Source: an uncultured Gammaproteobacteria bacterium
GTDB taxonomy: Bacteria; Patescibacteriota; Microgenomatia; Daviesbacterales; UBA10151
Assembly: GCA_964500725.1 (NCBI GenBank)
Contig: CAZCNP010000001.1
Span: forward strand, 64,766-128,765
Length of the DNA stretch: 64,000 nt
Direction of reading: 5' to 3'
A model generated the notes under the pieces. It searched no databases, was not told where the DNA came from, and worked only from the letters and a program-made list of their open reading frames with translations. The position numbers and the translations under genes are program-made. This document shows, piece by piece, positions 3,229 to 62,308 of the stretch (position 1 is its first letter; every line of letters begins with the position of its first letter).

Positions 3229-3921
3229 ATGAAAATCTCTATCATTACTCTCTTTCCCCAAAGTTTTGAAACTATCTTAAACACTTCAATTTTAAAACGG
3301 GCTCAACAAAAAAAACTGGTAGAATTTGAACTTATTAACCTCCGTAATTTTGGAGAAGGCAGACATCAAGTAGTCGATGATAGACCCTACGGCGGAGGAG
3401 CTGGGATGGTTTTGAAAGCAGATATACTTGCCAAAGCAGTAAAATCTTTTTCCAAACTACGAACTGCGAACTATAAACTACGAACTATCTTAACTTCAGC
3501 CTCAGGTACTCCCTACAAACAATCAAAAGCTTTAAAGTTGTCTAAATTGGATCATATAGTCATAGTCTGTGGACATTATGAGGGAGTGGACCAAAGATTT
3601 ATTGAAAATTATATTGACGAGGAAATCTCCATTGGAGATTATATTTTAACAGGAGGGGAGATTCCAGCTATGGTTATTGCTGATTCTATAGTCAGACTTA
3701 TCCCAGGAGTTTTAGAAAAGCTAGAAGCCACTCAAAATGAGTCCTTCTCAGAAAACCTACTTGAGTATCCTCAATATACCAGGCCAGAGGAATTTGAAGG
3801 AAAAAAAGCGCCTGCAGTTTTGCTTTCTGGAAATCATGCTGAAATAAAAAAATGGCAGATGCAAAAATCACTGGAAAAAACCAAAAAAGTAAGAGGGGAT
3901 TTACTCACTCAAAAGGATTAG
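3229..3921 (+). CDS. trmD: tRNA (guanine37-N1)-methyltransferase
   Basis: MKISIITLFPQSFE...DDRPYGGGAGMVLKAD matches the TrmD N-terminus and SAM-binding loop. Confidence 0.85.
   Translation: MKISIITLFPQSFETILNTSILKRAQQKKLVEFELINLRNFGEGRHQVVDDRPYGGGAGMVLKADILAKAVKSFSKLRTANYKLRTILTSASGTPYKQSKALKLSKLDHIVIVCGHYEGVDQRFIENYIDEEISIGDYILTGGEIPAMVIADSIVRLIPGVLEKLEATQNESFSENLLEYPQYTRPEEFEGKKAPAVLLSGNHAEIKKWQMQKSLEKTKKVRGDLLTQKD
3455..3489. repeat. heptanucleotide tandem tract (aactNNN)x5 inside the trmD coding sequence
   Basis: aactacg aactgcg aactata aactacg aactatc. Confidence 0.7.
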
Positions 3922-4609
3922 CCTTACCTCTAGGCGAAACTGGTCCTGTTTCAGAAGGAGCAGAAATAAAAGTATTACTGCTTTCTGCCAGCTTACTTAA
4001 AACTTGACTTTCTTTTTCACTAAACCCTGCTAAAGGAGCATCTGCGCCTCCTGAAGCAGGTGCAACCTGGGCATATAAAACATCCAGTTTTAACGAAGCA
4101 TCAACAATTTGTGAATCAGCCCCGGAAGAAACATCAAAGCTGCTTACCCTAATAAGTCTGGATGAACCTTCTAAATTATTTAACAAAGTCTGAAACATTA
4201 TCCTTGCTCCCTTAACCTCCACCTGAACAGGGAAACTATTAATATTGCCTGATTTATTAGAACTGGTATTCAAGGAAATAGAAGTAAGGCTAAACCCAGC
4301 CTGACTAACCAATTGTTGCAGCAATCCTAATGTACCTCCATAATCTCTTTCAGGAGGCAAAGATTCTAAAGCAAGTCTAACATGCGCAGATAAATCATCT
4401 TGATTTAGACTTTCTAAGGCTATAACCTTAGTTTCTAAAATTTTAGATTTAGCCATTAATTCATCTGCATTTTTTTGATTACTTATTAAGTTACTTATTT
4501 GTGGATAAATTACAAAGACAATTAAAAATAAACAAGATAATGCAACAATGGTAGGAAAAAGAAATAATTTATATGTTTGATAAAATTTTATAATCTCTTC
4601 TTTTTTCAT
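3905..4609 (-). CDS. pilO: type IV pilus assembly protein PilO-like
   Basis: N-terminal TM segment plus coiled coil. Downstream of and overlapping pilN within the pilMNO arrangement. Confidence 0.55.
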   Translation of the reverse strand: MKKEEIIKFYQTYKLFLFPTIVALSCLFLIVFVIYPQISNLISNQKNADELMAKSKILETKVIALESLNQDDLSAHVRLALESLPPERDYGGTLGLLQQLVSQAGFSLTSISLNTSSNKSGNINSFPVQVEVKGARIMFQTLLNNLEGSSRLIRVSSFDVSSGADSQIVDASLKLDVLYAQVAPASGGADAPLAGFSEKESQVLSKLAESSNTFISAPSETGPVSPRGKANPFE

Positions 4610-5151
4610 ATGCCTTTAATTTTTAAACTCATTCTGTAAACCCCATCTCTGCCTCTGTTAAGACTATCTAGGGAGATTTTACTGATTTTATTCTCATTCG
4701 TCTCCTTGGTAGTCAGAGTGCTAACTATATTGTCTAAAGTAGTCGAATCAGGCACCGTAATCAACAAAGCAGCCTCTCCTGACTGATCAACGGTGATTGA
4801 ATTGATAACTACAGAAGAAGATAATAATTTATCAATTACTTGATAAAGCAAGGTTTGCTTTGAGGGCGTCCCTAAATATTGATCGATTGTTGTCAGCCTA
4901 TTTTTTAACAGGGACAATGAAGATTCTACACTTTGTAAACTGGAGACTCTTTGTTGCTGCTCGCTGACTTTGGCTTGCACTTCAACAACATTACGACTCT
5001 GTAAAACACTCAAAGCTACAGTTAAAGAGGCCAAAAAAATCATAATCAAAAAAACTGTTACCCCAGCAAACTGAATCTTGTAGAACTTTTTTCTCTTGGT
5101 ATACTCAGTCAGTATTTCAGGGGGCAGTAAATTAACTGCAATTTTTGCCAT
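4606..5151 (-). CDS. pilN: type IV pilus assembly protein PilN
   Basis: AVNLLPPEIL motif, single TM segment, coiled coil; follows pilM. Confidence 0.65.
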   Translation of the reverse strand: MAKIAVNLLPPEILTEYTKRKKFYKIQFAGVTVFLIMIFLASLTVALSVLQSRNVVEVQAKVSEQQQRVSSLQSVESSLSLLKNRLTTIDQYLGTPSKQTLLYQVIDKLLSSSVVINSITVDQSGEAALLITVPDSTTLDNIVSTLTTKETNENKISKISLDSLNRGRDGVYRMSLKIKGI

Positions 5152-5154
5152 CTT

Positions 5155-6192: not shown

Positions 6193-6242
6193 CCTAAAAT
6201 TATTTTAGAACAAACTATACCCTAAACGCTATACCCTAAACC

Positions 6243-8036
6243 CTACTTTACCTGGTATGTTCCTTTTACTAGAGAAAAAGCTCCTGAAGGACCAGAGGTA
6301 AACATGCTGCTTGCCAAACCTGTTTCATAATCTATAGTGGAATTGTTAATAAGCTTTATCTTCCAGGCTGTTAACTCGGCAAATCTGTTGCCTGTTCCAG
6401 GCTCAATGATACCATTACCAGCATAATATACTCCTGTGTTACCATTACTGTTTACTTTTATTGCTGATAGGCCAGTAGTTCTTGAGTCATAATTTGATAA
6501 CACCATCAGCAAGCTGCTGCCTGTACCTGTCCCATTTAGATGATTATTGCTGTTCATTTCAAACTGCCCATCAATAATGATTACTCCCGATGAATATCCA
6601 TAGCTTGAATCAAGTGTTAGAGTGTTATTACTGTTTAATGTTAAATTACCTGTAATCCAAAGCGGGCTTTTGACTGTAATAGAACAACCACTGCCTAAGT
6701 TAACATTCCCGTTAATTTTTTTGGAATTAAGTATACTGACACAACCGTTTATATCACCTGTACTTTCCCCATTGCTCTGAGCAGTTTCTTTCCAATCTGC
6801 CACATTTGCATCTGAGATTGGAAAAACCTTGGGTGGTGAATCAGCAGAACCCGGGTGAGAGGTCCCAGATACAGTTGAGGAAATAATAGTTTGGTAGTAT
6901 GCATCTTTGCTGATTGTTAAATTCTCAATAGTGTTGGCATGAACATTGCCGCCAACCGTCATCTTATTGGAACCTGCTCTGATTGAAGTTGGAGCTCCTC
7001 CTAAATATAATCTAAAGCTTAAATCTAAACTTGGAATGGTTGCATTCCATGTTGGGTTCCCAGTTGACCAATTAGAAGACCATTTAGGCAAACCTCTCAA
7101 GTAACCTTGGGCCAAATCAGCCTGCCAGGACCAATAATTATTATTATCTTGGGTAGTATCAATCATAATCCAGTAAGTTGTATCTGATGTAACTGCAGGG
7201 GAAGAGGCAAAACCAACATCAATCCAACCATATTGGTCGGTCACTAAACTGCCAAATAAAGTACCTGAGGTTAATACTGCATTTTTATCCGGCCTGCCAT
7301 CTTTATCTTGCAAAATCCTCACTGTTGCATCAGCAGGATTGCCAATTTTTTTTATCTTTAAAGTTATTTTATTTATCGAGCCGGAAGTTGCCGGCTGAAA
7401 AGACTGGGCTGCATCAAACCTATCCTCTCCGTTGATATTCCTCCCGAAAGAAAAATCCTGACAATTACCATCAGTGCAATCTGTATCCTGGTCAGTCTCA
7501 GTTGCCGGCCCTCCAGCCACCCAAGCATCTCCTGTGATTACATTATCATTTCCTGCTGTAATATTACCATTTGAATAAATTGATCCCTCAACCCTGTTGC
7601 TATTGCCTAAATCTAAACCTCCATCTCCAACCTGCAGTCCATAAGTAAAAGCAATGCCAACCCCGTTTGATGCTGTAATCTTCACAGTTCTTTTGGCTCT
7701 GGCTTTTGCTTTATTGGGGATATAGCCGGTTGATTGAATAACTTTGGTAGAAGCATCAGAAGAGGTGATAGTCACGGAATATGATCCATCCCCAAAAACG
7801 GTTTCCAGCTCTCCGTTATAACTTCCAGCTGTGGCATTCAAAGCTGTTAAAGCCTTATCTGCTCCTGCTTCAGCTAAAGCTGTTGCTTTCTCTGCATCTG
7901 CAGCATAGAAGGCATTAGAAAAATAAACCTGGGCACCACCAACAACAAACAGCACCGTAAAAAGAACAACCCCTAAGGCTACAAACACAATAACTAAAAT
8001 CTGTCCTTTTTGGCTTAAATGTAAGTTTTTTTTCAC
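6243..8036 (-). CDS. large pilus-associated protein with a PilX-N-like N-terminus (TM helix + AxxAAEAG motif) and a long Gly/Asn/Thr-rich beta-rich body
   Basis: N-terminal hydrophobic helix followed by ADAEKATALAEAGADKAL, which is PilX_N-like. Confidence 0.55.
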   Translation of the reverse strand: MKKNLHLSQKGQILVIVFVALGVVLFTVLFVVGGAQVYFSNAFYAADAEKATALAEAGADKALTALNATAGSYNGELETVFGDGSYSVTITSSDASTKVIQSTGYIPNKAKARAKRTVKITASNGVGIAFTYGLQVGDGGLDLGNSNRVEGSIYSNGNITAGNDNVITGDAWVAGGPATETDQDTDCTDGNCQDFSFGRNINGEDRFDAAQSFQPATSGSINKITLKIKKIGNPADATVRILQDKDGRPDKNAVLTSGTLFGSLVTDQYGWIDVGFASSPAVTSDTTYWIMIDTTQDNNNYWSWQADLAQGYLRGLPKWSSNWSTGNPTWNATIPSLDLSFRLYLGGAPTSIRAGSNKMTVGGNVHANTIENLTISKDAYYQTIISSTVSGTSHPGSADSPPKVFPISDANVADWKETAQSNGESTGDINGCVSILNSKKINGNVNLGSGCSITVKSPLWITGNLTLNSNNTLTLDSSYGYSSGVIIIDGQFEMNSNNHLNGTGTGSSLLMVLSNYDSRTTGLSAIKVNSNGNTGVYYAGNGIIEPGTGNRFAELTAWKIKLINNSTIDYETGLASSMFTSGPSGAFSLVKGTYQVK

Positions 8037-8038
8037 TG

Positions 8039-8614
8039 TTAGATATTTCTTAGGTTCGCCTCAGATGTGGCTATATTAGTCTCAAAAGAGGCTCCGCTTC
8101 TTTGCTTTATAACCAAAGTCATTTTTATCCTAATTGCTGCAGTAGGAATAACTTCCCGAGGAGGAATTGCTGAGTTAAAGTATTGGAAGGTTAAGTTATC
8201 TATAGAGGTAGAAAAAATTCGGTCTGCTGTTTTTCTGGAGCTTGCAGAATCAGGAAACACTTTAAAGTGTAAGGTATTGGAATCTAGATAAAATATGTAG
8301 TAATCATAGGTGTCTGTAATAACGCTATTTGAAGAATCAATAGCAGGAACCTGTAGCACAAGTTGATTACTGCCAGATGTATAAGTATCGGAACCGTTAG
8401 TATACTGCTCAGCTACAGTATAAGCCTGCTTAATACTGCTTCTGACTACCACTAGAGCATCATTACTGTTTAAACCCATCTGCACCTTAGAAGACTGGTT
8501 GGTAAAAAGGCCTGCGCTGTTGACTATTATCACCAATAGTAATACTCCAACAATTGCAGTAATCCCCATTGCTATCAAAACCTCAACAAGGGTCAACCCT
8601 TTCTCAACTCTCAT
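8039..8614 (-). CDS. minor (pseudo)pilin, prepilin-type N-terminus
   Basis: N-terminus KGLTLVEVLIAMGITAIVGVLLL matches the class III signal (G|xTLVE). Confidence 0.7.
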   Translation of the reverse strand: MRVEKGLTLVEVLIAMGITAIVGVLLLVIIVNSAGLFTNQSSKVQMGLNSNDALVVVRSSIKQAYTVAEQYTNGSDTYTSGSNQLVLQVPAIDSSNSVITDTYDYYIFYLDSNTLHFKVFPDSASSRKTADRIFSTSIDNLTFQYFNSAIPPREVIPTAAIRIKMTLVIKQRSGASFETNIATSEANLRNI

Positions 8615-9072
8615 TGGTTTATTCCTCCTTCTCCAATCATGGTTTTTAAAGTAACATTTTGCAGTTTACTATTATCCTTCCAGGTAATTGTGACTGAAAC
8701 CTGTTTTATATGCTCTCCATTAGTACAAATCTGCTCACTGCAATTCTCAACAACTACATTTCCAGCTCCAGAAGGCAGCAAACTTAAACGGTTATCGGCA
8801 ATAGGGGAATTATCATTTACTAGATTAATGTAGCTTATTGTTCTTTTGTCCTCAATTTGTTTGGCTGCTATTTCTCTGGCCAGAGAAAGATGCCTGCTTT
8901 TACCAATTAGCATCATTGCATTAGGAATACTTGCCATCAAAAATACAATGGACCCTACGATCACTATAACCAGAAGAGACTCTATCAAAGAAAAACCACG
9001 GGAAGAATGTAAAATGTAAAATGTAAAATGTAAAATTCTTTTTGGCTTAATTGTAAATTGTACATTGTACAT
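8611..9072 (-). CDS. minor (pseudo)pilin. The listed ATG and the first ~22 codons are encoded by two heptanucleotide repeat tracts.
   Basis: RGFSLIESLLVIVIVGSIV prepilin motif. The upstream leader MYNVQFTIKPKRILHFTFYILH is encoded by (aatgtaa)x4 and (a/c)attgta x4. Confidence 0.6.
   Translation of the reverse strand: MYNVQFTIKPKRILHFTFYILHSSRGFSLIESLLVIVIVGSIVFLMASIPNAMMLIGKSRHLSLAREIAAKQIEDKRTISYINLVNDNSPIADNRLSLLPSGAGNVVVENCSEQICTNGEHIKQVSVTITWKDNSKLQNVTLKTMIGEGGINQ
9006..9033. repeat. (aatgtaa)x4 heptanucleotide tract in the minor-pilin leader coding sequence
   Basis: Four perfect copies. Confidence 0.85.
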
Positions 9073-9076
9073 TGTA
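9049..9076. repeat. ((a/c)attgta)x4 heptanucleotide tract spanning the annotated start codon of pilin 8611..9072
   Basis: Four copies carrying TGTACA palindromes at 7-bp spacing. Confidence 0.85.
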
Positions 9077-9079
9077 AAT

Positions 9080-9907
9080 TTACTTATTTATCGTTCCTGC
9101 AGAAAAAATGGCATAGTCAAAAAAAGAGGGGACTACTTTATCAAGCCTGAATACTTGAATCTTTCTTTGGGTCTGACCAGAAGTCCCAGTCGCTGTAAAT
9201 ATCTTTGCCTGAACAGGCAGAGAACCTGAATTTGGTCTAACAGCAAATGCCTGGGATGTACTACTATAAAGCAATCTAGCACGCAGTAATATCAACTTAC
9301 TTAAACCTGGTAAAGTAGTCGAACTGACATCTATATCTTTTCCACAAAGAAATGTTTTGTCAGTATCAGGAGATAAGGAGGTTGGAATCGCTGGCGAGGA
9401 ACAAGTAACAACATCAAAACCGGCACTTCTACCACTTATTGATTCTAGGAAATATTTATGGCTCTTATACTCACCTGAGGCATCATATATTACAGTTATT
9501 TCTATTGCGGGACGATCTGAACCAGCAGTTACCTCTGCATTTCCCCAATACACAGCTAGTGTTGAATAGTCATAAACCTTAGCCAAATCACTTGGATTAG
9601 CTAACCAGACTTGGGCCATTTCTTCCTTGCCAATTGGTGGATATTCTAGTGCATTGGTTCCAGCAGGCACAGTATTCATATCAACAGCAGAAGAATTATT
9701 GTCTAAAGTAAACTCATCTACTGTGGCTCCAGTTTGAATGGCTTTTTCTATACCTGCCTCAGCTGCAGAAAAAGCTCTGGAGGATTGTTCTACCTTACTG
9801 GCAGTGGAAACATCAGAAAGAGATCTCTGGACAACTGAAATCCCTATCCCCAAAGCCACAGTCATTACCAAAATCAATATTAAAACAACCTGTCCCTTTT
9901 CTCTCAT
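9080..9907 (-). CDS. PilX-N-domain pilus assembly protein
   Basis: N-terminal TM helix followed by AFSAAEAGIEKAIQ, the PilX_N signature. Confidence 0.55.
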   Translation of the reverse strand: MREKGQVVLILILVMTVALGIGISVVQRSLSDVSTASKVEQSSRAFSAAEAGIEKAIQTGATVDEFTLDNNSSAVDMNTVPAGTNALEYPPIGKEEMAQVWLANPSDLAKVYDYSTLAVYWGNAEVTAGSDRPAIEITVIYDASGEYKSHKYFLESISGRSAGFDVVTCSSPAIPTSLSPDTDKTFLCGKDIDVSSTTLPGLSKLILLRARLLYSSTSQAFAVRPNSGSLPVQAKIFTATGTSGQTQRKIQVFRLDKVVPSFFDYAIFSAGTINK

Positions 9908-11831: not shown

Positions 11832-13040
11832 CTAGAAAAGAGAACACCCTGCATTACCATTATATGAAGCAGTTATCTCAGCAGGAGTCAAAGCTCTATT
11901 ATAAATCCTAACTTCATCTATAGAACCATTAAAAAATTCTCCATTACCTCCATACTGACCAATATAAACATTCCGGGTAGCATCATAAAGCATGGGTGTA
12001 CTAGAGGCATAAGTGCCACTTCCTACTTGATTGCCATTAGCATAGATGGTATAGCCAGTGGTAGTAACTACATAGGTGATATGGTACCAAAAGTCTATAG
12101 AATAGCTGAAAGTGGCATCTGCTCCAGTTGTTATCCATGCAGAACCAGTACCAATATCTCCATGAATAGTGTTGCCGTTTTGCAGCTTCATATCAAAAGT
12201 GTAATCACCTCCGCTTCTGGTACCAAAAATAGCCCCAGTAGAATTATCCGCAGGCTTCACCCAAGCAGATATTGTAAACGGACCAGACATAGATCCTAAT
12301 GCATTAGCACCTAAAGAAACATAGTTGCTTCCATTAAATTGCCCTGCGCTACCAATCTTACCATTGGGATCCCAACTAGCTGTACTCCAGGTTCCAGTAT
12401 GGCCATAACCACTTTTATCTGCAACTTTGGTATCTGTTCCTTCATTAAAATCCCAATAACCAACTAAACCATTTAGCTGTGAACCAGAAGCATCACAGGT
12501 AGGCCTTGTTTTAAGGGTTCCCCCGGAAGTCATGGAAATAGATTTAGTGCTTGTAGTCCTAGTATTTTCCAGAGAAACTGCAAAAGAAGTGCATTTTGGC
12601 TCTCCGAAGTTCATCGTACCCGTCAGAAGATCAAAATTTATTGTATAAGCCGATCCTGGAAATCCCGGGTCTGACGGGCAAGCAACACCAACTCTTGATA
12701 TACTGTCTATTTGGATATTTGAATCTATCTTACTAATATCCAATTCTTTCTTTGAATAAAAAGTCCCTGATTCCTCACAACCTAAAGTTACAGTCTTACG
12801 GTCATCTGAAAATACTACTTGCCATTTAGCGCTGAAAGCGCTCTGGCATTTGTTATTAGAGCTGGCATTTGTCTGTGCTTGTCTTATTAAACCTTGAATA
12901 TCAGAAGTTGCGCTTTTTAATTTCTGGTCTTCTCCAAAATTGGCAAAATTAGCAAAAGCAAAAACTCCTGTTATAGCCATAATGGTCACAACCACCAAAA
13001 GCTCAACTAAAGTAAAGGCATTAGGGACAGCTTTAGCCAT
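11832..13040 (-). CDS. type IV pilin fused to a C-terminal LamG/concanavalin-like domain
   Basis: N-terminus AFTLVELLVVVTIMAITGV. C-terminus GNGEFFNGSIDEVRIYNRALTPAEI is the LamG hallmark. Confidence 0.7.
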   Translation of the reverse strand: MAKAVPNAFTLVELLVVVTIMAITGVFAFANFANFGEDQKLKSATSDIQGLIRQAQTNASSNNKCQSAFSAKWQVVFSDDRKTVTLGCEESGTFYSKKELDISKIDSNIQIDSISRVGVACPSDPGFPGSAYTINFDLLTGTMNFGEPKCTSFAVSLENTRTTSTKSISMTSGGTLKTRPTCDASGSQLNGLVGYWDFNEGTDTKVADKSGYGHTGTWSTASWDPNGKIGSAGQFNGSNYVSLGANALGSMSGPFTISAWVKPADNSTGAIFGTRSGGDYTFDMKLQNGNTIHGDIGTGSAWITTGADATFSYSIDFWYHITYVVTTTGYTIYANGNQVGSGTYASSTPMLYDATRNVYIGQYGGNGEFFNGSIDEVRIYNRALTPAEITASYNGNAGCSLF

Positions 13041-13046: not shown

Positions 13047-13078
13047 ATTGTACATTGTACATTGTACATTGTACATTG
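13047..13078. repeat. (attgtac)x4.5 heptanucleotide tract between a pilin stop and the pilin-LamG start
   Basis: Same unit as 9049-9076. Lies 6 nt upstream of the ATG of 11832..13040. Confidence 0.85.
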
Positions 13079-13079: not shown

Positions 13080-13538
13080 TTAAGGTGGAGTAACTACAAA
13101 ATTATAATCACTAAAATCAGGCGCAAGAGGCCATGAAGTACCACAGCTGACTGGAAGAGATTGCGGGGGAGAAGGAGGGTTTTCCAGCTTGGCATAAAGA
13201 CAATAGCTTGTGCAATTATTTCCTGCTGCATCACAACCTAAAGGAACATAACCATATCCTTGAGGAATTTGGGTCATATAATTTCTTCGGCTACCCGCAC
13301 AAGGAGATCCTTGGCTAATATTACATAAATAACCAATCTGCCCCGGATAAGCATCCGCTTCTGTCACATATTGTTCCAGAGCCAGCTGAATGGATTTTAA
13401 ATCTGCCTGCCTTTTGCTGTCCCTGCCTTGTTTTAAGACAGAGGAATATAAAATCAAACCAATAGCAGAAAGTATAGCAATAATGCTGATTGTTATTAAA
13501 AGCTCAATTAAGGTGAAACCTTTTTTTTGGGCAGGCAT
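13080..13538 (-). CDS. type IV pilin (PilA/GspG-like)
   Basis: KKGFTLIELLITISIIAILSAIGL...RQADLKSIQLALEQY. Confidence 0.8.
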   Translation of the reverse strand: MPAQKKGFTLIELLITISIIAILSAIGLILYSSVLKQGRDSKRQADLKSIQLALEQYVTEADAYPGQIGYLCNISQGSPCAGSRRNYMTQIPQGYGYVPLGCDAAGNNCTSYCLYAKLENPPSPPQSLPVSCGTSWPLAPDFSDYNFVVTPP

Positions 13539-13575: not shown

Positions 13576-13995
13576 TCAGTTTTCATAATATAAATCTAAA
13601 AAATCTTTTGCAGAGATAATCTCTATGTTTTTAAACTTTTTAAGAGAGAGTAGATGCTTTTTATCCCCGGAAATAATATACTCAGCTTTTGCCTCCTGGG
13701 CAGCTTCTAAAATTTTATTGTCCTTGGGATAGGTTTGTATCACTTTAACAATAACCTGGGGAGAAACCAGAATAGCAAACTCACCAATTCCTTTTATAAC
13801 TTCCTTTACTTCTTCCGCTGACCAACCAAATTTATTCTGCAGGTTTCTGGCAACCTCCAATAATATTGCATTACTTGTAAAAAGTTCTATGTCTCCTTTT
13901 TTAGCCAGTTCTAAACATTGCCTTGGGTTACCACCAAAAATAATTGCAGAAAGGTAAATATTGGCGTCAAAAACAACTTTAACCTTTTGCTTCAT
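13576..13995 (-). CDS. PIN-domain toxin (putative TA toxin, TIGR00305-like)
   Basis: VVFDANIYLSAII...ELFTSNAILLEV...ISGDKKHL is the PIN acidic-residue pattern. Overlaps the upstream RHH gene. Confidence 0.6.
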   Translation of the reverse strand: MKQKVKVVFDANIYLSAIIFGGNPRQCLELAKKGDIELFTSNAILLEVARNLQNKFGWSAEEVKEVIKGIGEFAILVSPQVIVKVIQTYPKDNKILEAAQEAKAEYIISGDKKHLLSLKKFKNIEIISAKDFLDLYYEN

Positions 13996-14224
13996 GGAGT
14001 ATACGGTCTATATCATCTTCCGAAGTTATCTTAAAATCCCTGGCAGTTTTCGCACCTCTTTTGTAAATCCTCTGCCATCTCTCTTCCTCAGAAGCATTAT
14101 CTATTAAAGAAGAGATAAAAGCGCTGCGGGATTGACCGCTCGTACTACGGCTTTTCTCCAGTTTCAGAGCCACTCTTTGAGGCATAGATATAGAAATTAC
14201 ATGGGTTGTTCTTTGAATTTTCAT
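13979..14224 (-). CDS. ribbon-helix-helix (CopG-like) antitoxin
   Basis: VISISMPQRVALKLEK matches an RHH beta-strand and helix. Its 3' end overlaps the PIN gene by 17 nt. Confidence 0.5.
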   Translation of the reverse strand: MKIQRTTHVISISMPQRVALKLEKSRSTSGQSRSAFISSLIDNASEEERWQRIYKRGAKTARDFKITSEDDIDRILHEAKG

Positions 14225-14747: not shown

Positions 14748-14782
14748 TCAATTGTCAATTGTCCAATGTTAATTGTCAATTG
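14748..14782. repeat. (tcaattg)x5 imperfect heptanucleotide tract immediately upstream of pilin 14285..14740
   Basis: CAATTG palindromes at 7-bp spacing. Confidence 0.8.
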
Positions 14783-14788
14783 TTTTAA

Positions 14789-23316: not shown

Positions 23317-24243
23317 TTACTGCCCTAAATGAAGATACCAGTCAATAATTTGACTGCCCCAATATAGCATTATCAAACTTCCTAACACTAAAAATGGGCC
23401 AAAGGGGATTGTTTGGCCAAAATGCTTTTTACCCAGGAGTATCAGACCTACTGAAAATACAGCTCCTGTTAAAAATGATAAAATTAAAGCAACCAGGGCA
23501 TTAGGGAAGCCTAACATCAACCCTATAAAAGCCCCTAACTTAACATCCCCTCCACCCATACCTTTACCGCGGGTTATAATAATCAAGCTTAAGAAAAAAC
23601 CTCCAATTGCTAGCCCCATTAAAATAGATAACAAAAATGGCTGGGCAGTAATCAAAGCATGCCTTTGGAAATAATCACTATGTGGAGGAAGTAAGTATCT
23701 CCCCACTGGAGTCTGAGAAAGGTAAAAGTAAAGGTATCCAATCTTATATATGGTAAATAAAAATAGGGAAACTGCCCCCACAACAATAGCTGGCAAAATA
23801 ACCCTGTCTGGAATAAACATCTTTTTTAAATCTGTTAAAAAAAGAGCTGTTAAAACTGCTATAAAGAATATATTTAACAAAACTTCTATAACTTTAATTT
23901 GAAATTTGAAATTTGAAATTTGAAATTGAAGAGGGGAGAGACCTTGAAAGCTTTGAAAGAAAAGAAATCCTACCAATAATCCTACTGCCACCTCGACTAA
24001 TAAATACTCCATGCCAATTTTTTTCTTGCAATACCTGCATTTTCCAGCAAGCAGGATATAGGAGAAAATAGGAAAAAGGTCGTACCATCTAAGTTCTGTT
24101 TTGCAGAATAGACAATACGACCTTCCCTTAAAATACTTACCAATTAAACTTCGGTCAGCCAATACCTTCGTAAAACTCCCTAAAATAATGCCTATTAAAA
24201 ACCCGACTGACCCCCAAATGACCATTATGGCGCGTACGTACAA
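23317..24243 (-). CDS. pilD: prepilin peptidase (A24 family)
   Basis: N-terminal CxxC...CxxC zinc-finger region and catalytic GGGDVKLGAFIGLMLG motif. Confidence 0.85.
   Translation of the reverse strand: MYVRAIMVIWGSVGFLIGIILGSFTKVLADRSLIGKYFKGRSYCLFCKTELRWYDLFPIFSYILLAGKCRYCKKKIGMEYLLVEVAVGLLVGFLFFQSFQGLSPLQFQISNFKFQIKVIEVLLNIFFIAVLTALFLTDLKKMFIPDRVILPAIVVGAVSLFLFTIYKIGYLYFYLSQTPVGRYLLPPHSDYFQRHALITAQPFLLSILMGLAIGGFFLSLIIITRGKGMGGGDVKLGAFIGLMLGFPNALVALILSFLTGAVFSVGLILLGKKHFGQTIPFGPFLVLGSLIMLYWGSQIIDWYLHLGQ
23899..23926. repeat. (tttgaaa)x4 heptanucleotide tract inside the pilD coding sequence
   Basis: Four perfect copies; encodes FQISNFKFQI. Confidence 0.85.
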
Positions 24244-28895: not shown

Positions 28896-29516
28896 GTGAT
28901 TGCAAGGCTTTATATTTGTAGAAATATTGACAAGAGAGCAGAGGAGATTAAAAAGATATTAGCTTCCCACATCGGAAGTGGGAACGTAAATCATCCTGAT
29001 GTTTTATACTTTGAAAAAGATACTAAGTTAGGGATTGCTGAAAGCAGAAAAATAATAGATCACTTTTCTCTAAAACCTTACTCTGCCAAAGGCAGGGTAG
29101 CAGTTTTAGAACAAGCAGAAGATTTAACCCTTGATGCTCAAAATGCCCTGTTAAAAACACTAGAAGAGTTACCTACTGAGGCAGTTTTTATTCTGGGGGC
29201 TGCCTCTGAAGATAACCTTTTACCAACAATTTTATCCAGATGCCAGATTATTAAAGTTCACAGTTCACAGTTCACAGTTCACAGTTATAACAAAGACATT
29301 GAGAAATTGCTGCAGACTACAATTGAGGAAAGATTTGAATATATAGAGAAATTAAAAGATAGGGAGCAGTTCCTATATTCTTTAACAAGCTTTTTCCATC
29401 AAAAATTACCAAACAGCGCTTCATTTTTAGAAAAACTTTTGCAAGCAGAGGGATGGGCCAAACAAAATGTTAATATCAGGGCAATTTTAGAATATTTGAT
29501 GCTTGAAATGCCATAA
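28896..29516 (+). CDS. holB: DNA polymerase III delta' subunit-like protein (short form)
   Basis: Sensor motif TILSRCQII; about 200 aa, AAA+-lid-like. Confidence 0.55.
   Translation: MIARLYICRNIDKRAEEIKKILASHIGSGNVNHPDVLYFEKDTKLGIAESRKIIDHFSLKPYSAKGRVAVLEQAEDLTLDAQNALLKTLEELPTEAVFILGAASEDNLLPTILSRCQIIKVHSSQFTVHSYNKDIEKLLQTTIEERFEYIEKLKDREQFLYSLTSFFHQKLPNSASFLEKLLQAEGWAKQNVNIRAILEYLMLEMP
28964..28984. repeat. 21-bp palindromic element ttcccacatcggaagtgggaa, in-frame inside holB
   Basis: Perfect 7-bp arms TTCCCAC/GTGGGAA with a 7-nt spacer; encodes SHIGSG. Confidence 0.85.
29256..29283. repeat. (gttcaca)x4 heptanucleotide tract inside the holB coding sequence
   Basis: Four perfect copies; encodes VHSSQFTVHS. 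Confidence 0.85.
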
Positions 29517-29523
29517 TTTTCTT

Positions 29524-29551
29524 GACTCTAGACTCTAGTCACTAGACTCTA
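29524..29551. repeat. (gactcta)x4 heptanucleotide tract in the holB-gyrB intergenic region
   Basis: Three perfect copies plus one variant (gtcacta); TCTAGA palindromes. Confidence 0.8.
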
Positions 29552-29579: not shown

Positions 29580-31538
<1,959 letters not shown>

Positions 31539-55585: not shown

Positions 55586-58500
55586 CTAGCGATTTGAAAC
55601 TCCCAGATACAATACTGATTTATCTCCACAGCTATACCAATTCCATCCACCTGCGGATATGGGGTAGGAAACATATGGATTGCCTGAACAAGCTTTAGAG
55701 TTTGATTGAACATCAACTATAACTGCATAATTACCTCCACTATTTAAAGTAAAACTGGCAGAATATGAAGAAGCAGTTGAAGATCCGACTTCATACCAAA
55801 CACAATTTAGAGAAGAAGCATTAACACAATTAAATTTGTTAATATTATATCCCAAAATATCAGAGCTAGTGATACGAGTCCTGTCTGTTCCATCATTTGA
55901 CTTGGCAATATAAATATGGCTGCCAGTTACAGAGGATGAGGAACTGATACCAGCATTAAAAGTTACTGCCTGGCCTAAGATTGCTGTATTAGGCCCACTA
56001 ATTGAAGCTGTGGGATATGAGGAATCACCAACTACAGAAGATGCGCATGGACGGCTGTTACAAGATTGGTTTTGGGATGAATCGCCGGAACAATCAGTAC
56101 CTCCATTGGCAGGAGTAGGGTTAGTACAAGTTCTGCTTCTTGTCTGATTTCCACTACCACAGCTTACAGAACAAACAGACCAACTACTCCAGGCTGACCA
56201 TCCTCCATTAACTGCAGCGGGAGCTACTGTTGGAGCAGCTGTAGCAGATGGAACAGGAGTAGCAGCAGGTGCTGTGGTTGGAGCTGTGGTTGGAGTTGTG
56301 GTTGGAGCAGTAGTAGGAACTGGTGTTGAAGCAACTGTAGCAGCTGGAACAGGAGTAGCAGCAGAGGCTAACACTATTTTGAGTTGATGAATTATTTCTC
56401 TGCCTTTATTGGTTTTAAACTTAACAAAGATAAATTTATCTCCTGGAGCAGTGGAGAAGGTATGGGAAACTTTAATATTATCTGTATAATTTAATTCAGA
56501 ACCCCATTCAGTATCACCAGTAGGTCTATTATCATAGGCTACCTGATATTTAATGGTATATTCAGGAGACTGTGTAGGAGAGGGGGATGGATTTGCTGAA
56601 GAAACAACTAAATCAATTTTTGATGAAGTACCACAACTGTAAAAAGTCATGCCTCCACTAGTAACAGGATAAGTAGTATATGGATTACCACTGCATAATC
56701 TCTGATTAGCATTAGCCCCAGATGGCTTTGCGTTTACAATTATTTTATAATTACCAGACTGAAGAGGGGTAAAACTTGTTACAACTCTATTCTCATTACT
56801 ACTACCTAGTTTGTACCAAATACAACCATCTCCATCACAATTGAAATTACTTTGACTGAGGTTTGCTATATCATTACTATTTATCTTTGATCCCTGGCCA
56901 TTGTTATCTCTGGCTACCCAGATATCACTGTTTTCTATACCAGTTGAACTGACAAGTGAGGCAATATAACTCAAACTCTGACCAACACTACCTTCACCCG
57001 GACCTCTTAACATAGCACTAGGATGATCTACAGGAGTAAGCAAAGGCAGTTGCAGAGTAGCCAAACCAATATCATGGAACAAATATCCCCCCATATCACT
57101 GCCTGTTCCTCCTGAATTATTTCCCCACCCATCTCTTGCTCCAAAATATAAGAAAAGTTTAGAATTATCAGGAGACTCAACTACTGTTGGTAGGTTAATC
57201 GAAACATTAGTTTGAGGATTATTAAACTTCATCCAAGGGAAAGGCCCTGCTTGAGTAATAATTTGCGCCCTGTTTTCTCCAGGCCATTTAGCTAAAGGAT
57301 TTTTGGTCCAGAAAGCGTCAACTCTTGGAAGACCTCCAGAAATAGCATTGTAAAACATCACATGATTACCGCTGCCTTGATCAAAATAATAAATAGGCCC
57401 TTCTTCTGCTGTTCCAATCTTAGTTGCTTGATCTATGGGAGTAAAAAGAGGGTTCCCGCTCCAAGGAGTCCAAGGGCCAAGGGGGGAGGAAGATGAGGTA
57501 GCGTAACCTGAAGTAATAGCATGGCAACCTGCTTCGCCATCTCCTTGATGCCCACCTGTTCCTTCCCATTTGCCATTTTCATATTGTGTTTGTCCTGCTA
57601 AAAACAGTACCCAAGTCCCATTAATTTGATGAGGTACCCCATTGGCAGTTATATAATCACAACCCCATATCATATTACCTCCACTACAACTTCTTATTTG
57701 TTGTTGACAATAATTTAGATCAGCAGGTACCACAACAGAAGAATTTTGGGAAATTCTGGTAAAAGGACCCAAAGGAGAGTTAGCCTCAGACAAACCTGAT
57801 CTGGCAGGATACCTGCTACTTCCATCACCATTTGGAAGTTGGGTAGCTAAATCCCAGTAAAGGACACTCCCATCCACAGGGTGCCAGGCTTCCCAGGTGT
57901 AGGCATACCATTTGCCATTGTACGGAAAAACATTGGCATACATAAATGATGTTCCAGAAAATCCTGCCGTTTCTGATTCTCTTTCCCATTCACCTTTAGC
58001 TCCTAAAACCTTTAAAGGTCCCTTTTTGGTAAAGTTAATTCCGTCAGAAGAGGTAGCCACACAAGATTTCCAACCTATTACTTCCTCTAAGTTTCTATTA
58101 AAATCCAAAGATCCAGGAAAATCGGTTGGAGTAGAAACACCAGCATCAGTTACCCTTTCCAGTTGCACACCATCCCAGAAACTGGTAAATCTAGTTGCTG
58201 TTGGGGTAGCAAAGGAAATAGTTACAGCCTTAGCATTTGAGTCAGTGGTAAATTTGACATAAATTCTTTGCCAATTATTATTTCCTCTCTTAATCACTGA
58301 TGCAGTGGAAGAATCAATAACATTTTCTGCAAAGTTTCTTGGATCAGATTTATATTGCTTAACAATTAGCCCCATTTCTGTATTAGAATCAGCCCAAAAA
58401 TAGGCAGAGGCAATATATGTAGTATTGGGGGTTACTAAAAGCCCCATTGGTGAGGCTAAATTAGCCTCAGTATGATTATTATTATAATAATAATTACCTG

Positions 58501-58870
58501 TATAAGCCCCTCCTCCCTTGGTACCATCTGTTTCAACTTTTAAACTTCTTTCTCCAAACAACTTCTTTTCTGAAACTGAGGAAACACTAGCGTGCCAGGT
58601 ATCCCAACCATTTACTCCTAAATTACTCTCAAAAGATGGATTTAATAGATTCTCAGTACAATCATAGTAAAGATAATAAGTTCCATTATCTTTAACTACA
58701 AATGGATCCCTGGCTCCCAGCAAATCATGATAGCTGCTATTGCCCCAACGGATTACTGGTTGGGAATAAATTTGGGGATTTGCAATATTGTCTGTAGCTG
58801 CTCCCAACACCGAAGCAGGGGAAAAGGGGAGAAGTAATATAGAAAATAAGGCAATAATAATCTTTTTCAT
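55586..58870 (-). CDS. 1094-aa secreted multidomain protein: glycoside-hydrolase-like beta-propeller with CBM4_9-like insert, Thr/Pro linker, TSP1 repeat, Ig-like C-terminal repeats
   Basis: Signal peptide; [15 protein letters not shown] (GH43/32-like); NPSFESNLG (CBM4_9-like); [28 protein letters not shown] (TSP1). Confidence 0.6.
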
Positions 58871-59375: not shown

Positions 59376-59912
59376 TTAACGTAATTTTGCATTTTTCTGA
59401 TTCAAAAAGGCTTGTTTATGTTTAACATACTCAAAAAAACGGGGATTGGCAACAAACTCAAAAACTTTCACTTCTGCTGAATGAGGATAGGGGAGAATTA
59501 ACACCTTCTTAGTAGCAGGAAGAGCAAGGTACTTTTCAAGCTTTAAAGCATTGGTGTCACCACATTCTGTAGGAAAATATAAATCCTTATCTATTACATC
59601 AACTTCAAAACCTATTAAAGGATATTCGTATTTTATATCTTTTTCAAACACGCCACATTGCGATGTTAAATAATCTTTGGCAAAAGATTTTAAAGCTAAA
59701 TGCCCATCATTTTCACCGCTTTTTGAAAACCCATTCTTTGAATCCAAAACAAAATCTATCTTTGTAATAAATTCATCAGGTTGGGCAAGCACTTGCGATG
59801 AAATAGTAAACAATCCTTCCTGATGCATCCAAGCAATTTCATCAATATTGTCCCAATCAATATTTGGAGTAAAATTGCTGTAAAATATTTTTACAAAATC
59901 TTCACTTGTCAT
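59376..59912 (-). CDS. hypothetical protein (nuclease-fold?) downstream of the integrase
   Basis: 178 aa; LIGFEVDVIDKD...ECGDT is a weak PD-(D/E)xK-like pattern. Confidence 0.3.
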   Translation of the reverse strand: MTSEDFVKIFYSNFTPNIDWDNIDEIAWMHQEGLFTISSQVLAQPDEFITKIDFVLDSKNGFSKSGENDGHLALKSFAKDYLTSQCGVFEKDIKYEYPLIGFEVDVIDKDLYFPTECGDTNALKLEKYLALPATKKVLILPYPHSAEVKVFEFVANPRFFEYVKHKQAFLNQKNAKLR

Positions 59913-60918
59913 TTGCTTCAGCTAATGGATGATACTTTCGATGAGTTTCTTGAGCAAATCTATCAGAAGCATTAATATACCTGGTAGTAGTACCTAGAGA
60001 TTCATGTCCTAATAAAATCTGTATAGCAGCAGCAGAAGCACCATTCTCAGCCATATAAGTAGCAAAACCGTGTCTTAAGGAATGCGGAGTAGTTGGCAGA
60101 TTTATCCTCAAGGCCTCTCTATACTTTTGAATTTTTCCTTGGATATAACGAGCTGTTAGTCGCTGGGGTATACCTTTTCCTGTTGTCTTACTTTTAGTTG
60201 GTACAAATAGCGCCTGCTCTCGATCCTGTCTCAATTTTAAGTAACTCTCCAAACAAGACTTGGCACGATCGGTTAAATAAACAAATCTCTGTTTTCTTCC
60301 TTTACCGATTATAAAAATCCTACCCTCATCATTTAAATCGCGTTTATTCAGATTTACTAATTCGGAAATGCGCATCCCTGTAGAAAACAGGGTCTCTAAA
60401 ACTGCCCTATTTCTCGCACCAATCAGTGAGTGTTTTTCCAAACGAGAGGGACTTTCTATCAAAGCAACTAGATCTTGAAAATCTGCTACGTTCGGATGAG
60501 GCCTTCCCCGTTTGACCATCTTGAAGAAATCAGGGATAACCGGACAATCGTACTCCTGATCAATAAGAAACCTAATGTAGGCTCTCACCGCGGACAAACA
60601 TCTGTTAATACTAATAGCAGCCAATCTGCGTGACGATTTTTCCTTCAGGAAGGAAGTTTTCCGATCTTTTGACGCAAGATAAGCTTTGAATTCCAAAACA
60701 GAGCGTTTATCTAAATCTTTAATATATAGATTTCTCGATTCAAGAAAGTTGTCAAATAACAAAAGGTCGCTTTTATAATGGTAAATCGTCTCAGGAGAAT
60801 AATTATTGGTTTCCAAAAATAAATAGAAGTCTTCAATTAGATCCAACCTTAAGGCTTTATGATTACCAAAACTACTTTTAGGTTCAGACATTTTATTTAA
60901 GACCATTGAGTCTTTCAA
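59902..60918 (-). CDS. tyrosine recombinase/integrase with an N-terminal SAM-like domain
   Basis: HSLRHGFATYMAENGASAAAIQILLGHESLGTTTRY. Confidence 0.8.
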   Translation of the reverse strand: MKDSMVLNKMSEPKSSFGNHKALRLDLIEDFYLFLETNNYSPETIYHYKSDLLLFDNFLESRNLYIKDLDKRSVLEFKAYLASKDRKTSFLKEKSSRRLAAISINRCLSAVRAYIRFLIDQEYDCPVIPDFFKMVKRGRPHPNVADFQDLVALIESPSRLEKHSLIGARNRAVLETLFSTGMRISELVNLNKRDLNDEGRIFIIGKGRKQRFVYLTDRAKSCLESYLKLRQDREQALFVPTKSKTTGKGIPQRLTARYIQGKIQKYREALRINLPTTPHSLRHGFATYMAENGASAAAIQILLGHESLGTTTRYINASDRFAQETHRKYHPLAEANDK

Positions 60919-61384
60919 AGATTAAATTAAGACCTTGATGTTCCGAATCGATTACAGTCTCAACTCTAGCCCGTCCCTTTTTTCTCTTAAAATCACCTGT
61001 GGATGGCCTTAAATAAAAAAATTGATCCCTTTTTATGGTATCTCTAGCAAAAACTAAGAATTTATATAAGTCGAGATTCTCTTCAAGTAACACAAAGACA
61101 TAATAATCTGATCTAGATCTTTTTAAGGCTCCAAATTGCCAACCCGAAGAATACGCTTTATCTACACCTTGTTTGGCATAACTATATGTAGAGCGCTTAC
61201 AGTTTCTGCTATAAATTGCTGTCTTAACTTCTAGAGTAATATTTCCTTCTATTATTATGTCTGCTAGGGTATTTATGTTTTGACTCCCAAGAATATAACA
61301 GTTAAAACCCTTTTTAAGTATTTCGGAATAGAGTAGTGCTTCACCTAATTTGCCCAAAATAGTCCTACTAGAGGAGTTTCTCAT
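60893..61384 (-). CDS. PD-(D/E)xK nuclease-fold protein (hypothetical)
   Basis: ...LADIIIEGNITLEVKTAI is a D...E-x-K motif. Overlaps the integrase start by 26 nt. Confidence 0.4.
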   Translation of the reverse strand: MRNSSSRTILGKLGEALLYSEILKKGFNCYILGSQNINTLADIIIEGNITLEVKTAIYSRNCKRSTYSYAKQGVDKAYSSGWQFGALKRSRSDYYVFVLLEENLDLYKFLVFARDTIKRDQFFYLRPSTGDFKRKKGRARVETVIDSEHQGLNLIFERLNGLK

Positions 61385-62273
61385 ATTTTCATATCTTAAT
61401 CCTTATACACCAATCTGTAAAATTTTATCATCATAGGTTAGCATGAATATCTTACTTGTAATGCTGATTACAAGAATAATACCAAGGCTAAATAGGTATT
61501 GTCAAGCATGAAATTAACAATAAGCTATATAATATTTAAGGGGTTGAAGTAATGTTAGATCATTACCAGTGGGTGGATCCTTACGGGGTGAAACTATTAA
61601 CACTATGAAGGCATTCTTACCCCTTTCTTTCCTATCTGAGCCTGCTCAGGCGCGAGGCCCTGGAAGGCCTCAAAAACGGCTTATTGGGGAGTAGGAGCTA
61701 TATACCTTCATCCAAAGTTTAGATTGTTATAGAGGGCCAAACTAAACATTAGTATAAAATAAAAAACTCCGGAATATAACTTAAAAAATTTGGACGGGAA
61801 TAACACAAAAATATGTACCAATAAAAGTTTATAATTCCTACCTTTTGTTCGCTTTATATTTCAACCAATCAGTCAAAGCAGGTCTCCTCCGTCAAAATGT
61901 ATATATCTCATATTGTACGACATCAAATGTAGGGAATTCACAACAATTCTCTAAAAGAGAAGAGAAGATCTAAGCAAGAGCTCGATATAAACAAACTCAT
62001 TACACTCATAAATAAAACAACACCATTACTGCTAACAGAGCAGACCTCTCCTCTAAGCAAGCTTCGGGTATTGTAAGAAGGAAACTAGCAGTTATCCACA
62101 AACGGTGACAATACAGGCACAAGTAGACCCCATAGTTTTTCTTCTTTGTGCCTATCAACTATATCATTCTATATCATTTATTCTTTTCACGAAAATACCC
62201 TATAATTTTTCACGACTCTACTCTGACTTTAGAGTTTTAATACTTCCCCACTTCCCCATCTTTATTGTATTTT

Positions 62274-62308
62274 AATTGTCAATTCTCAACTTTCAATTCT
62301 CAATTTAT
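62274..62308. repeat. (aaYtNtc)x5 imperfect heptanucleotide tract at the edge of the ORF-free region
   Basis: aattgtc aattctc aactttc aattctc aatttat. Confidence 0.6.

Follow-up and report, generated by a model that had tools for sequence, protein, structure and literature searches.

Heptanucleotide tracts in the window

Tandem tracts of seven-nucleotide units were analysed in a 64,000-nucleotide stretch (the window) of JACQIW010000013.1, a contig of the metagenome-assembled genome (MAG) GCA_016198315.1, from Candidatus Daviesbacteria, an uncultured groundwater bacterium of the Microgenomates within the candidate phyla radiation (CPR). Gene identities in the window were assigned by Pfam, which supports trmD (3229-3921), the prepilin peptidase gene pilD (23317-24243), the DNA polymerase III delta' gene holB (28896-29516), pilM, and N-methyl pilins at 8611-9072, 11832-13040, 13080-13538 and 14285-14740; the gene at 29598-31538 was assigned as gyrB through synteny with the holB/pilD locus (L121) of the closest relative found, GCA_964415615.1, whose locus around trmD is L122. 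Tandem Repeats Finder, run over the window, detected ten period-7 arrays, each of 4.4-5.1 copies (31-36 bp) and five of them perfect (Table 1; tracts are named by their first position). These include all nine positions listed in the original prediction, which had also claimed the roughly constant copy number seen here in all ten tracts, and add 6215-6245, which it had missed.

Three tracts lie well inside genes, two in the 5' part of the minor-pilin open reading frame (ORF) 8611-9072, and five fill or nearly fill short intergenic gaps. The gene-internal tracts are translated in frame as 7-aa-periodic peptides, located in TrmD in the loop between 'ADILAKAVKS' and 'ILTSASG', in PilD in a variable loop after the A24 N-terminal domain, and in HolB in the linker after the 'LPTILSRCQII' motif. 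Tracts 9006 and 9049 are direct repeats and are not mutually complementary. Tract 6215 overlaps the stop codon (6243-6245) of a 597-aa gene and ends 22 nt 5' of the pilM ATG (6192), tract 29520 begins 4 nt past the holB stop and ends 46 nt before the ATG at 29598, and tract 62274 points on the minus strand into a 925-nt ORF-free stretch. Within that stretch (61385-62309) no ORF reaches 60 aa, Rfam gives no match even with E<=1 allowed, and tRNA and tmRNA genes are absent; a decayed gene, or one for an unrecognised RNA, may lie there. No Rfam families or tRNAs were found at or beside the tracts, no common flanking motif or target-site duplication was seen around them, and, as read from the sequences, stop-codon avoidance is not a general trait of the intergenic tracts. 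Palindromes of 6 bp, which had been noted in several units, are present in four of the ten (TGTACA, CAATTG, AAATTT and TCTAGA), but with 12% expected this is weakly significant (P=0.024); palindromes or restriction sites were rejected as an organising principle, given this weak signal and their absence from most units at related loci.

Table 1 Heptanucleotide tracts and promoter-like sites in the window
Feature	Coordinates	Strand	Location and remarks
Tract (AACTACG)x4.7, imperfect	3455..3487	+	inside trmD; encodes KLRTANYKLRT
Tract, sense units TAGGGTT/TAGGGTA x4.4	6215..6245	-	upstream of pilM
Tract, sense unit TTTTACA x4.4, perfect	9006..9036	-	5' part of pilin ORF 8611-9072; codes ILHFTFYILH
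Tract AATTTAC AATGTAC AATGTAC AATTTAC AATT (sense)	9049..9080	-	fills gap after stop of 9080-9907; contains ATG 9072
Tract, sense unit CAATGTA x4.6, perfect	13047..13078	-	fills 39-nt gap between pilin 13080-13538 and pilin-like 11832-13040
Tract, sense unit ACAATTG x5.1, degenerate inner units	14748..14783	-	between 14789-16678 and pilin 14285-14740
Tract (AATTTGA)x4.6, perfect	23896..23927	-	inside pilD; encodes QFQISNFKFQI
Tract (AGTTCAC)x4.6, perfect	29255..29286	+	inside holB; encodes KVHSSQFTVHS
Tract (TCTAGAC)x4.6, imperfect	29520..29551	+	holB-gyrB intergenic
Tract AATTGAG AATTGAA AGTTGAG AATTGAC AATT (sense), imperfect	62274..62305	-	4 nt past stop of 62310-63092
Promoter-like TTTACA/17/TACAAT (10/12)	9078-9050	-	tract 9049
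Promoter-like TTTACA/17/TACATT	9034-9006	-	tract 9006
Promoter-like TGTACA/17/TACAAT	13075-13047	-	-10 ends 6 nt before ATG 13040
Promoter-like TTGACA/17/GACAAT (10/12)	14779-14751	-	10 nt before ATG 14740
Promoter-like TTGAGA/17/GACAAT		-	tract 62274; faces 925-nt region without ORF

Tract excess and length

For a stricter count, period-7 tracts were called at an 80% match and compared with dinucleotide-preserving shuffles, giving six tracts in the window against 0.05 per shuffle (maximum 1); periods 4, 5 and 8-15 showed no excess comparable to that of period 7. The comparison with shuffled controls, which the original prediction had proposed as a check, confirms the excess within the window and rules out chance low complexity. 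Under the definition of long-motif simple sequence repeats (SSRs; a 5-11-nt motif iterated beyond expectation), the window holds 6-10 such tracts versus 0.05 in shuffles.

Exact runs, counted at maximal length wherever s[i]=s[i+7] across 157 kb of Daviesbacteria-like DNA, form a background that decays over 16-20 nt; beyond it lie a single run of 24 nt and 12 runs of 29-34 nt. For periods 6 and 8 the exact-run lengths show no second peak. The length quantum of ~31-33 bp is real. Assembly artefact or k-mer collapse, which would spread lengths evenly over k..k+6, disrupt reading frames and spare imperfect tracts, was rejected because imperfect tracts are equally long, frames are kept in genes, and the NCBI MAG agrees with Logan contigs (built at k=31; contigs of the same organism were retrieved from many sequencing runs by exact-protein look-up).

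Tract sites persist in related genomes while their units drift

Three species-representative genomes (L007-L009), whose TrmD is 73-76% identical to that of the window, carry 4-7 period-7 tracts per 12-16 kb, of ~4.3-4.9 copies, and the closest relative found carries 13 in 20.7 kb around trmD and four more around holB. A metagenome scan with a TrmD alignment returned mostly distant bacteria, used as a broad control, and at least two further close relatives. Acidobacterial loci fetched with the query that gave L007-L009, serving as a control, contain essentially no period-7 tracts. Over 728 kb of miscellaneous metagenome loci, arrays of period 7 still outnumber those of any other class (38, versus 13 for period 6 and 10 for period 8), with its arrays clustered in a minority of loci; tract-bearing lineages named there are Roizmanbacteria, Peribacteraceae, Margulisbacteria and a Verrucomicrobia cluster. 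The suggestion that the tracts are a genome-wide mutational or element signature is supported and extended by these data, in that the tracts are lineage-wide, conserved in position and quantised in length, and we regard a lineage-wide, position-conserved repeat class as very well founded.

Conservation of position is most readily followed at trmD. In an alignment of 30 Daviesbacteria TrmDs most have a 7-aa-periodic insert at one loop (KLQTTNYKLQT, KLRTKNYELKT, LKAKSQKLK), some have a longer one and a few none, and the loop remains 7-nt periodic where TrmD is only ~50% identical, with units such as AAATTCG, AAAATTC, AATTACG, CAATTTC and AACACCG. Roizmanbacteria, Margulisbacteria and Verrucomicrobia have the TrmD-loop tract as well, and across lineages the site holds 0, about 3, 4.7 or 7.6 copies. 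Tract-free TrmDs have K(K/D)ENSK at the loop, encoded by A-rich, AAAAGTG AAAATTC AAAA-like sequence that is already roughly 7-periodic, and many TrmD-loop tracts have the unit AAAATTC or AAATTCG; because the tract-free loop is roughly periodic, the tract looks like an amplification and homogenisation of local sequence and not a foreign insertion. The net gain of tract-bearing over tract-free TrmD loops is 0-6 codons, and a clean 33-nt insertion in TrmD or HolB was rejected, the loops of tract-free homologues being merely 0-6 codons shorter. Length variants of TrmD in the Verrucomicrobia cluster, considered as a three-unit polymorphism, proved to differ by an N-terminal extension and by 11 aa inserted between two tracts.

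In HolB homologues the linker that follows the SRC motif likewise holds peptides of 7-aa period (RIQNSEFKIQN, KVKSEKLKVKS, RVQSSELKVQS); at this place the closest relative has (AAAGTGA)x4.7 (L121 10358-10390). Its pilD orthologue has 10.6 copies (L121 5011-5081) versus 4.6 in the window, a difference of six units that leaves the frame intact. Comparison of trmD, holB and pilD with their orthologues, another check proposed at the outset, thus finds 7-periodic inserts at the same loops in homologues. The two PilD sequences (23317-24243 versus L121 4446-5354) also form a mosaic, with ~55% identity over the N-terminal half and close to 100% from 'FQRHALITAQPF' on, almost as far as the C-terminus. 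Outside coding sequence, the junction upstream of pilM has a tract of 4.4-5.1 copies in four genomes, with four units one or two bases apart (elsewhere TTTACAA in L007, TTTACAG in L009 and TTGACAA/TGGACAA in L122); tract 29520 is without a counterpart at the holB-gyrB junction of L121, where the gap is 14 nt. At pilD, trmD and the pilM junction the length changes between genomes in whole units at the same site, as in long-motif SSRs. The persistence of sites and length while the unit shifts as a block is concerted evolution.

Units cluster above composition, with 36 identical and 239 near-identical unit pairs versus 7 and 110 expected, and five sites in L122 (10217, 13009, 16608, 18355 and 18858, one of them in trmD) share an alternating TTGACAA/TGGACAA mix. 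Inverted tract pairs, with complementary units 3-17 nt apart, occur at L073 4742-4823, L122 7641-7716, L007 2438-2508 and L042 3369-3441. At RecG such a pair lies at one loop in two distant genomes (L007 and L042) and is absent from the window. Some of the inverted pairs are intergenic, just past the recG stop, and could fold as ~30-bp hairpins; others lie in the recG loop.

A strand-specific subset of tracts resembles promoters

Four whole tracts were flagged by a consensus scan; in each the hexamers are on the gene strand (-), 17 nt apart. In the promoter-like tracts the hexamers share the sense strand with the gene that follows, and from the end of the -10 to the ATG there are 5-13 nt (tract 62274 excepted), without a Shine-Dalgarno sequence; at tract 13047 the geometry is TACAAT-6 nt-ATG, as in a leaderless transcript. 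The resemblance follows from the arithmetic of a 7-nt period, in which a hexamer 23 nt further on (6+17) is the same word shifted by two, so that TTGACAA yields TTGACA/GACAAT and TTTACAA yields TTTACA/TACAAT. One complete -35/-10 pair needs 29 nt, and ~4.3 copies are therefore the smallest tract with a sigma-70-type promoter of 17-bp spacer. With a sigma-70-type promoter defined as a TTGACA-like -35 and a TATAAT-like -10 (A at its second and T at its sixth position) 16-18 bp apart, the five sites in Table 1 conform, and tracts 3455 (promoter score as random), 6215, 23896, 29255 and 29520 (7/12) do not. The earlier idea that upstream tracts alter the spacing between promoter and ribosome-binding site is replaced by these observations: the tract itself is promoter-like, and no Shine-Dalgarno sequence separates it from the ATG.

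A random 32-nt heptamer tract, taken over all heptamers at window composition, passes the scan rule in 2.1% of cases and scores at least 10/12 in 0.3%, and 11 of the 64 tracts across all loci pass the rule versus 2.7 expected. Among 31 tracts just upstream of genes, eight score at least 10/12 on the sense strand versus 0.6% in unit-shuffled controls, and none does so on the antisense strand, whereas 34 tracts deep inside genes score as their unit-shuffled controls do (mean 6.56 versus 6.63). Promoter-like tracts are also found at non-pilin genes and in other lineages (L073 3759 after trmD, L084 4608 before trmD and L122 5340 before recG). In 15 promoter-like tracts, the spacer takes 20 of the departures from periodicity and the hexamers take four, where 41% would be expected to hit the hexamers (P=0.0095); of these four, two approach the consensus (GATAAT in L073, TACAAT in L009) and the other two keep the consensus-match count. 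In tract 14748 every departure falls in the spacer. Ordinary microsatellites decay from the edges, the reverse of such spacer-biased degeneracy.

In IMG/VR contigs with a guanine-cytosine (GC) content of at least 0.45, (TT[GT]ACAA)n arrays measure 30-33 bp in 17 of 18 cases and two composition-matched control units are nearly absent; in low-GC contigs all three units are broad in length. Among the loci L132-L161, (TTGACAA)x4.3-4.7 arrays of 30-33 bp lie in phage contigs of 51-58% GC, in some cases two per contig and with a GC-rich hairpin following, and TTTACAA arrays reach 134 bp in low-GC giant-virus contigs.

On these consensus matches and sequence statistics, the upstream subset has a reasonable, though far from secure, claim to promoter function. 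A purely mutational origin, in which all tracts would be neutral and the promoter resemblance would stem from AT-rich units and the shared ancestry of duplicated pilin junctions, is unlikely. It suits the gene-internal and the many intergenic tracts with arbitrary units and random promoter scores, and could draw on three further facts, namely that the pilins are tandem paralogues along which TTGACAA-type junctions could have been copied, that low-GC viral contigs commonly carry heptamer arrays whose AT-rich units are arbitrary, and that a heptanucleotide excess is general in prokaryotic genomes. It is at odds with an enrichment of high scores that is strand-specific and confined to tracts beside start codons, with the degeneration of inner units while outer ones stay intact, with TTGACAA-type tracts before unrelated genes in unrelated lineages, with nucleotide conservation at 9006/9049 exceeding that of the flanking genes (below), and with the constrained length of (TTGACAA)4.4 arrays in phage contigs of high GC, which nearly lack the control units. 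On balance we favour heptanucleotide microsatellites that are kept at tolerant sites, a subset of them serving as compact promoters.

Copy number is constant between assemblies at the tracts compared

Comparisons of copy number across runs and MAGs rest on consensus assemblies. The trmD tract 3455 is identical in six Logan contigs, tract 13047 has the same copy number in all spanning Logan contigs, and tract 14748 is identical in four contigs; taken together, these three tracts agree in copy number over 6-8 independently assembled sequencing runs. The 153-aa pilin ORF 8611-9072, including both leader tracts, is identical in two MAG contigs, and the 31-nt AATGTAA tract at 9006 (4.4 copies) occurs unchanged at the orthologous place in another species, L008. 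There the 80-nt region of the 9006/9049 double tract is 91% identical to the window, versus 66-77% for the flanking genes, and the pattern of variant units is shared as well. In one Logan contig from a strain variant (L107, SRR12113428) pilin 13080-13538 and tract 13047 are identical to the window and similarity stops exactly at the last unit of the tract; the gene that follows, a Laminin_G_3 pilin-like gene corresponding to 11832-13040, is a 65-70% divergent allele.

The original prediction had proposed slipped-strand phase variation of pilin expression, and was itself divided on the point. As contingency loci, the tracts would switch pilins by fast slipped-strand change of copy number, either through a leader frameshift at 9006/9049 or through loss of the promoter on going from 4.6 to 3.6 units at 13047 and 14748. 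Their placement is in part as expected: tracts 9006 and 9049 lie in 5' coding sequence of ORF 8611-9072, where a 7-nt unit, not being a multiple of 3, shifts the frame, and tracts 13047 and 14748 each hold a single -35/-10 pair that loss of one unit would abolish. Tracts 3455, 23896 and 29255, by contrast, lie in essential or housekeeping genes, and the same kind of tract occurs in trmD, holB, pilD and recG, where a frameshift would be lethal. Copy number does not vary between samples at 3455, 13047, 14748 or 9006/9049, and in place of a long tract with a broad length spectrum there are 4.4-5.1 units with exact runs peaking at 29-34 bp, far under the copy numbers of known switching tracts. On the side of switching, all k=31 Logan contigs that come to tract 9006 or 6215, from at least seven runs (L002, L111-L113, L115-L117, L119-L120 and L125-L131), end there, in the first case at the 31-mer of pure tract and in the second on either side, as they would with longer or variant coexisting alleles, whereas 3455, 13047 and 14748 are spanned; these breaks also have an innocent explanation in a tract length equal to the k-mer size and the presence of the same 31-mer in relatives. 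With copy number fixed across assemblies and low (~4.5), and the same tracts in trmD, holB and pilD, slipped-strand switching of the pilins is quite improbable. The tracts are probably not a fast switch, though this is less certain at 9006 and 6215.

Comparison with known repeat systems

By the accounts given in PMC4679880 and PMC4692102, heptanucleotides are the most abundant long-motif repeats in prokaryotes and an origin by polymerase slippage in 7-nt steps was proposed for them (Mrazek, Guo & Shah 2007). As far as those accounts describe them, these repeats share with the present tracts a 7-nt tandem iteration beyond chance, a mostly intergenic position, and recurrence at the same junctions of related genomes with change of unit and length; they differ in having broad lengths, where the tracts here have a sharp peak at 31-33 bp, conservation inside essential genes and a strand-specific promoter-like subset. 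The tracts belong to the heptanucleotide SSR kind, but with many unit families, where each case described before has one, a peaked length, essential-gene conservation and a promoter-like subset. Literature searches combining CPR with simple sequence repeats, and Patescibacteria with leaderless, found no paper on either combination.

A close parallel in arrangement is the TAACTGA direct repeat upstream of start codons in marine Beggiatoaceae, for which a post-transcriptional binder (S1 or cold-shock proteins) was proposed (MacGregor 2015, PMC4679880) and which forms 68, 40, 19, 2 and 1 sets of 2-6 copies (PMC4679880). In both systems heptamers are oriented to start codons and end a few nt before them, usually with no ribosome-binding site, a few lie inside ORFs, inverted pairs are rare, and essential genes are included. 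The Beggiatoaceae system has a single unit with a monotonic fall over 2-6 copies and no match to the -35/-10 consensus, whereas here there are many units with a mode of 4.5 copies and the upstream class does match. The omega protein of pSM19035 is a ribbon-helix-helix regulator that reads heptads. By analogy, the tracts could be rows of 7-bp (or, in RNA, 7-nt) sites through which an oligomerising ribbon-helix-helix, S1 or cold-shock protein regulates transcription or translation of the downstream gene, as their 7-bp periodicity, the direct and inverted pairs, the tracts ending a few nt 5' of start codons without a ribosome-binding site, and the clustering of units above composition would suggest. 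The unrelated units are, however, too many for a single binder, no regulatory role is obvious for tracts that lie in housekeeping genes, and no candidate binder was identified. Cooperative binding would also require good sites in a row, whereas in imperfect tracts it is the inner units that have degenerated; we consider such arrays very unlikely.

Heptamers read as G-quadruplex formers are known from Xanthomonas (GGGAATC, with a mode of four units) and Nostoc (GGGGA(T/C)T) (Rehm et al. 2015, PMC4692102). Those arrays are of one G-rich family with 2-26 units, whereas the tracts here are AT-rich, of many families, and can form no G-quadruplex.

The STRR sequences of heterocystous cyanobacteria, reportedly described by Mazel in 1990, have the units CCCCAGT, TTGGTCA and CAACAGT; the tracts were not assigned to them, as both the units and the organism, Candidatus Daviesbacteria, differ. 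In Haemophilus influenzae, 7-bp repeats upstream of hmw1A and hmw2A and TA repeats between the -35 and -10 of hif are phase-variable. Like these, the present tracts are short tandem repeats at adhesin or pilus promoters, and unit loss would in principle abolish the promoter. The hmw and hif repeats have many units, vary in copy number within and between strains and act via spacing or distance, whereas here copy number did not differ in any assembly seen and both promoter hexamers come from the repeat unit.

Membership of the REP/REPIN class with its RAYT (Y1) transposases, whose units are imperfect palindromes of 20-40 bp from one family dispersed over the genome, was rejected, the tracts being direct 7-nt repeats of many families and not hairpins. 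A Y1 (IS200/IS605-type) transposase-like gene lies beside atpB, upstream of the window (L001 605-1252), and likewise in L122 (655-1209), with a further copy at L121 3761-4339; that two species keep it in syntenic position is how a domesticated (RAYT-like) gene behaves. Nothing found connects this gene with the tracts. The least probable of the alternatives makes the tracts portable 32-bp elements or recombination junctions, spread or overwritten by ectopic conversion and acting as homology patches for exchange of pilin cassettes between strains, for which ~30 bp is near the minimum length of RecA-dependent recombination and which the unchanged tract of L107 followed at once by a divergent allele and the five L122 sites with one unit mix recall, but the breakpoint is a single example that a boundary between a conserved and a hypervariable gene would resemble, the tracts are associated with neither target-site duplications nor terminal motifs nor a transposase, the net length change at the TrmD and HolB sites is a few codons and not a clean 32-bp insertion, and the units at a site are usually one or two changes from those at the orthologous site.

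Neighbouring genes

Toxin-antitoxin genes are interspersed among the pilins (13576-14224, 17286-17939, 18200-18874, 22428-23072 and 32702-32947). The PIN_3 gene 13576-13995 overlaps a small upstream ORF (13979-14224) that has no Pfam match and may be its antitoxin, and the set also includes three AbiEii-like nucleotidyltransferases and a HicB-like antitoxin. At 14789-16678, 55586-58870 and 49566-52768 lie a pilin-like protein of 629 aa and a protein of 1094 aa, both with thrombospondin type 1 (TSP1) domains, with cohesin- and dockerin-domain proteins nearby; a period-12 coding repeat is at 56271-56308. Two tyrosine recombinase (phage-integrase family) genes, 48646-49569 and 59902-60918, lie 10 kb apart and flank this cohesin/dockerin/TSP1 surface-protein block.

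Discussion

The tracts are a standing feature of Daviesbacteria and neighbouring Microgenomates. Under the explanation that we favour, of microsatellites held at tolerant sites with a promoter-forming subset, a local 7-mer would be amplified in place via slipped or out-of-register pairing in 7-nt steps, and repeated loss and gain of units, or conversion, would keep the tract homogeneous, so that the whole tract changes its unit together but keeps its site and its ~32-bp length. Tracts survive in short gaps between co-directional genes, in the cleaved leader regions of prepilins, and in surface loops and linkers of TrmD, HolB, PilD and RecG, sites that have in common that 31-33 added or replaced bases are harmless; inside genes copy number could change by three units only. 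Tracts 9049, 9006, 13047, 14748 and probably 62274 may be more than passengers, as their gene-strand unit is a rotation of TTGACAA, TTTACAA or TGTACAA, and selection would keep TTGACAA-type units where a compact promoter is useful. A -10 placed 5-13 nt before the ATG without a Shine-Dalgarno sequence would imply leaderless or near-leaderless mRNAs for individual pilus genes. The concentration of tracts at pilin starts can thus be attributed to many short tolerant junctions together with selection for promoter-forming units and not to a rapid switch.

Several points weigh against this explanation. Promoter function leaves unexplained why the non-promoter tracts 3455, 6215, 23896, 29255 and 29520 have the same length, and simple slippage, the presumed origin, predicts a broad or monotonic copy-number spectrum and not a sharp peak. 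Sigma-70-like matches are common in AT-rich DNA (71 found versus 57 expected in 20 kb), and many promoter-like tracts are kin by orthology or by tandem duplication of pilins, leaving perhaps seven independent cases, not 15. The sole in-frame ATG of pilin 8611-9072 (9072) sits inside the -35 region of tract 9049, and because of this position tracts 9006 and 9049 cannot be a promoter for that ATG unless a non-ATG start is used. The unit mix shared by five sites in L122 hints at exchange between tracts and not purely local evolution. Finally, the Logan breaks at 6215 and 9006 could reflect hidden allelic heterogeneity, and could equally reflect a 31-mer shared with co-occurring relatives. The leader of pilin 8611-9072 read from ATG 9072 has 26 residues, mostly encoded by the repeats, in the window as in L008; an ATT start in the last unit of tract 9006 would, speculatively, give a canonical 7-residue pilin leader (ILHSSRG|F) in both.

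The meaning of prokaryotic heptanucleotide repeats has been open since 2007, and this locus offers three testable handles on it: a quantised length of 31-33 bp, tracts retained over deep divergence in the same essential-protein loops with concerted unit drift, and a strand-specific subset whose unit supplies both promoter hexamers at the right spacing. For annotation, 7-aa-periodic inserts should be expected in CPR proteins, k=31 assemblies fragment exactly at such tracts, and read evidence should be required before a pilin-leader tract is called phase-variable.

Judged from sequence, we tentatively suggest that these CPR bacteria, and apparently some GC-rich phages, may use self-contained periodic promoters, in which a TTGACAA-type heptamer repeated ~4.4 times would be a complete minimal promoter, and that an unrecognised length-setting process may be at work besides. 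If so, a strong 7-nt amplification drive could turn a single seed heptamer into a new promoter wherever there is a 32-bp gap, and each pilus gene would get its own leaderless transcript. Should the promoter subset hold, promoter birth would be very cheap, which would explain how ultra-compact CPR genomes drive single genes from 40-nt gaps without ribosome-binding sites. The ~32-bp quantum of the non-promoter tracts, long held in essential genes of several phyla, would point to an unrecognised process that sets length on 7-periodic DNA.

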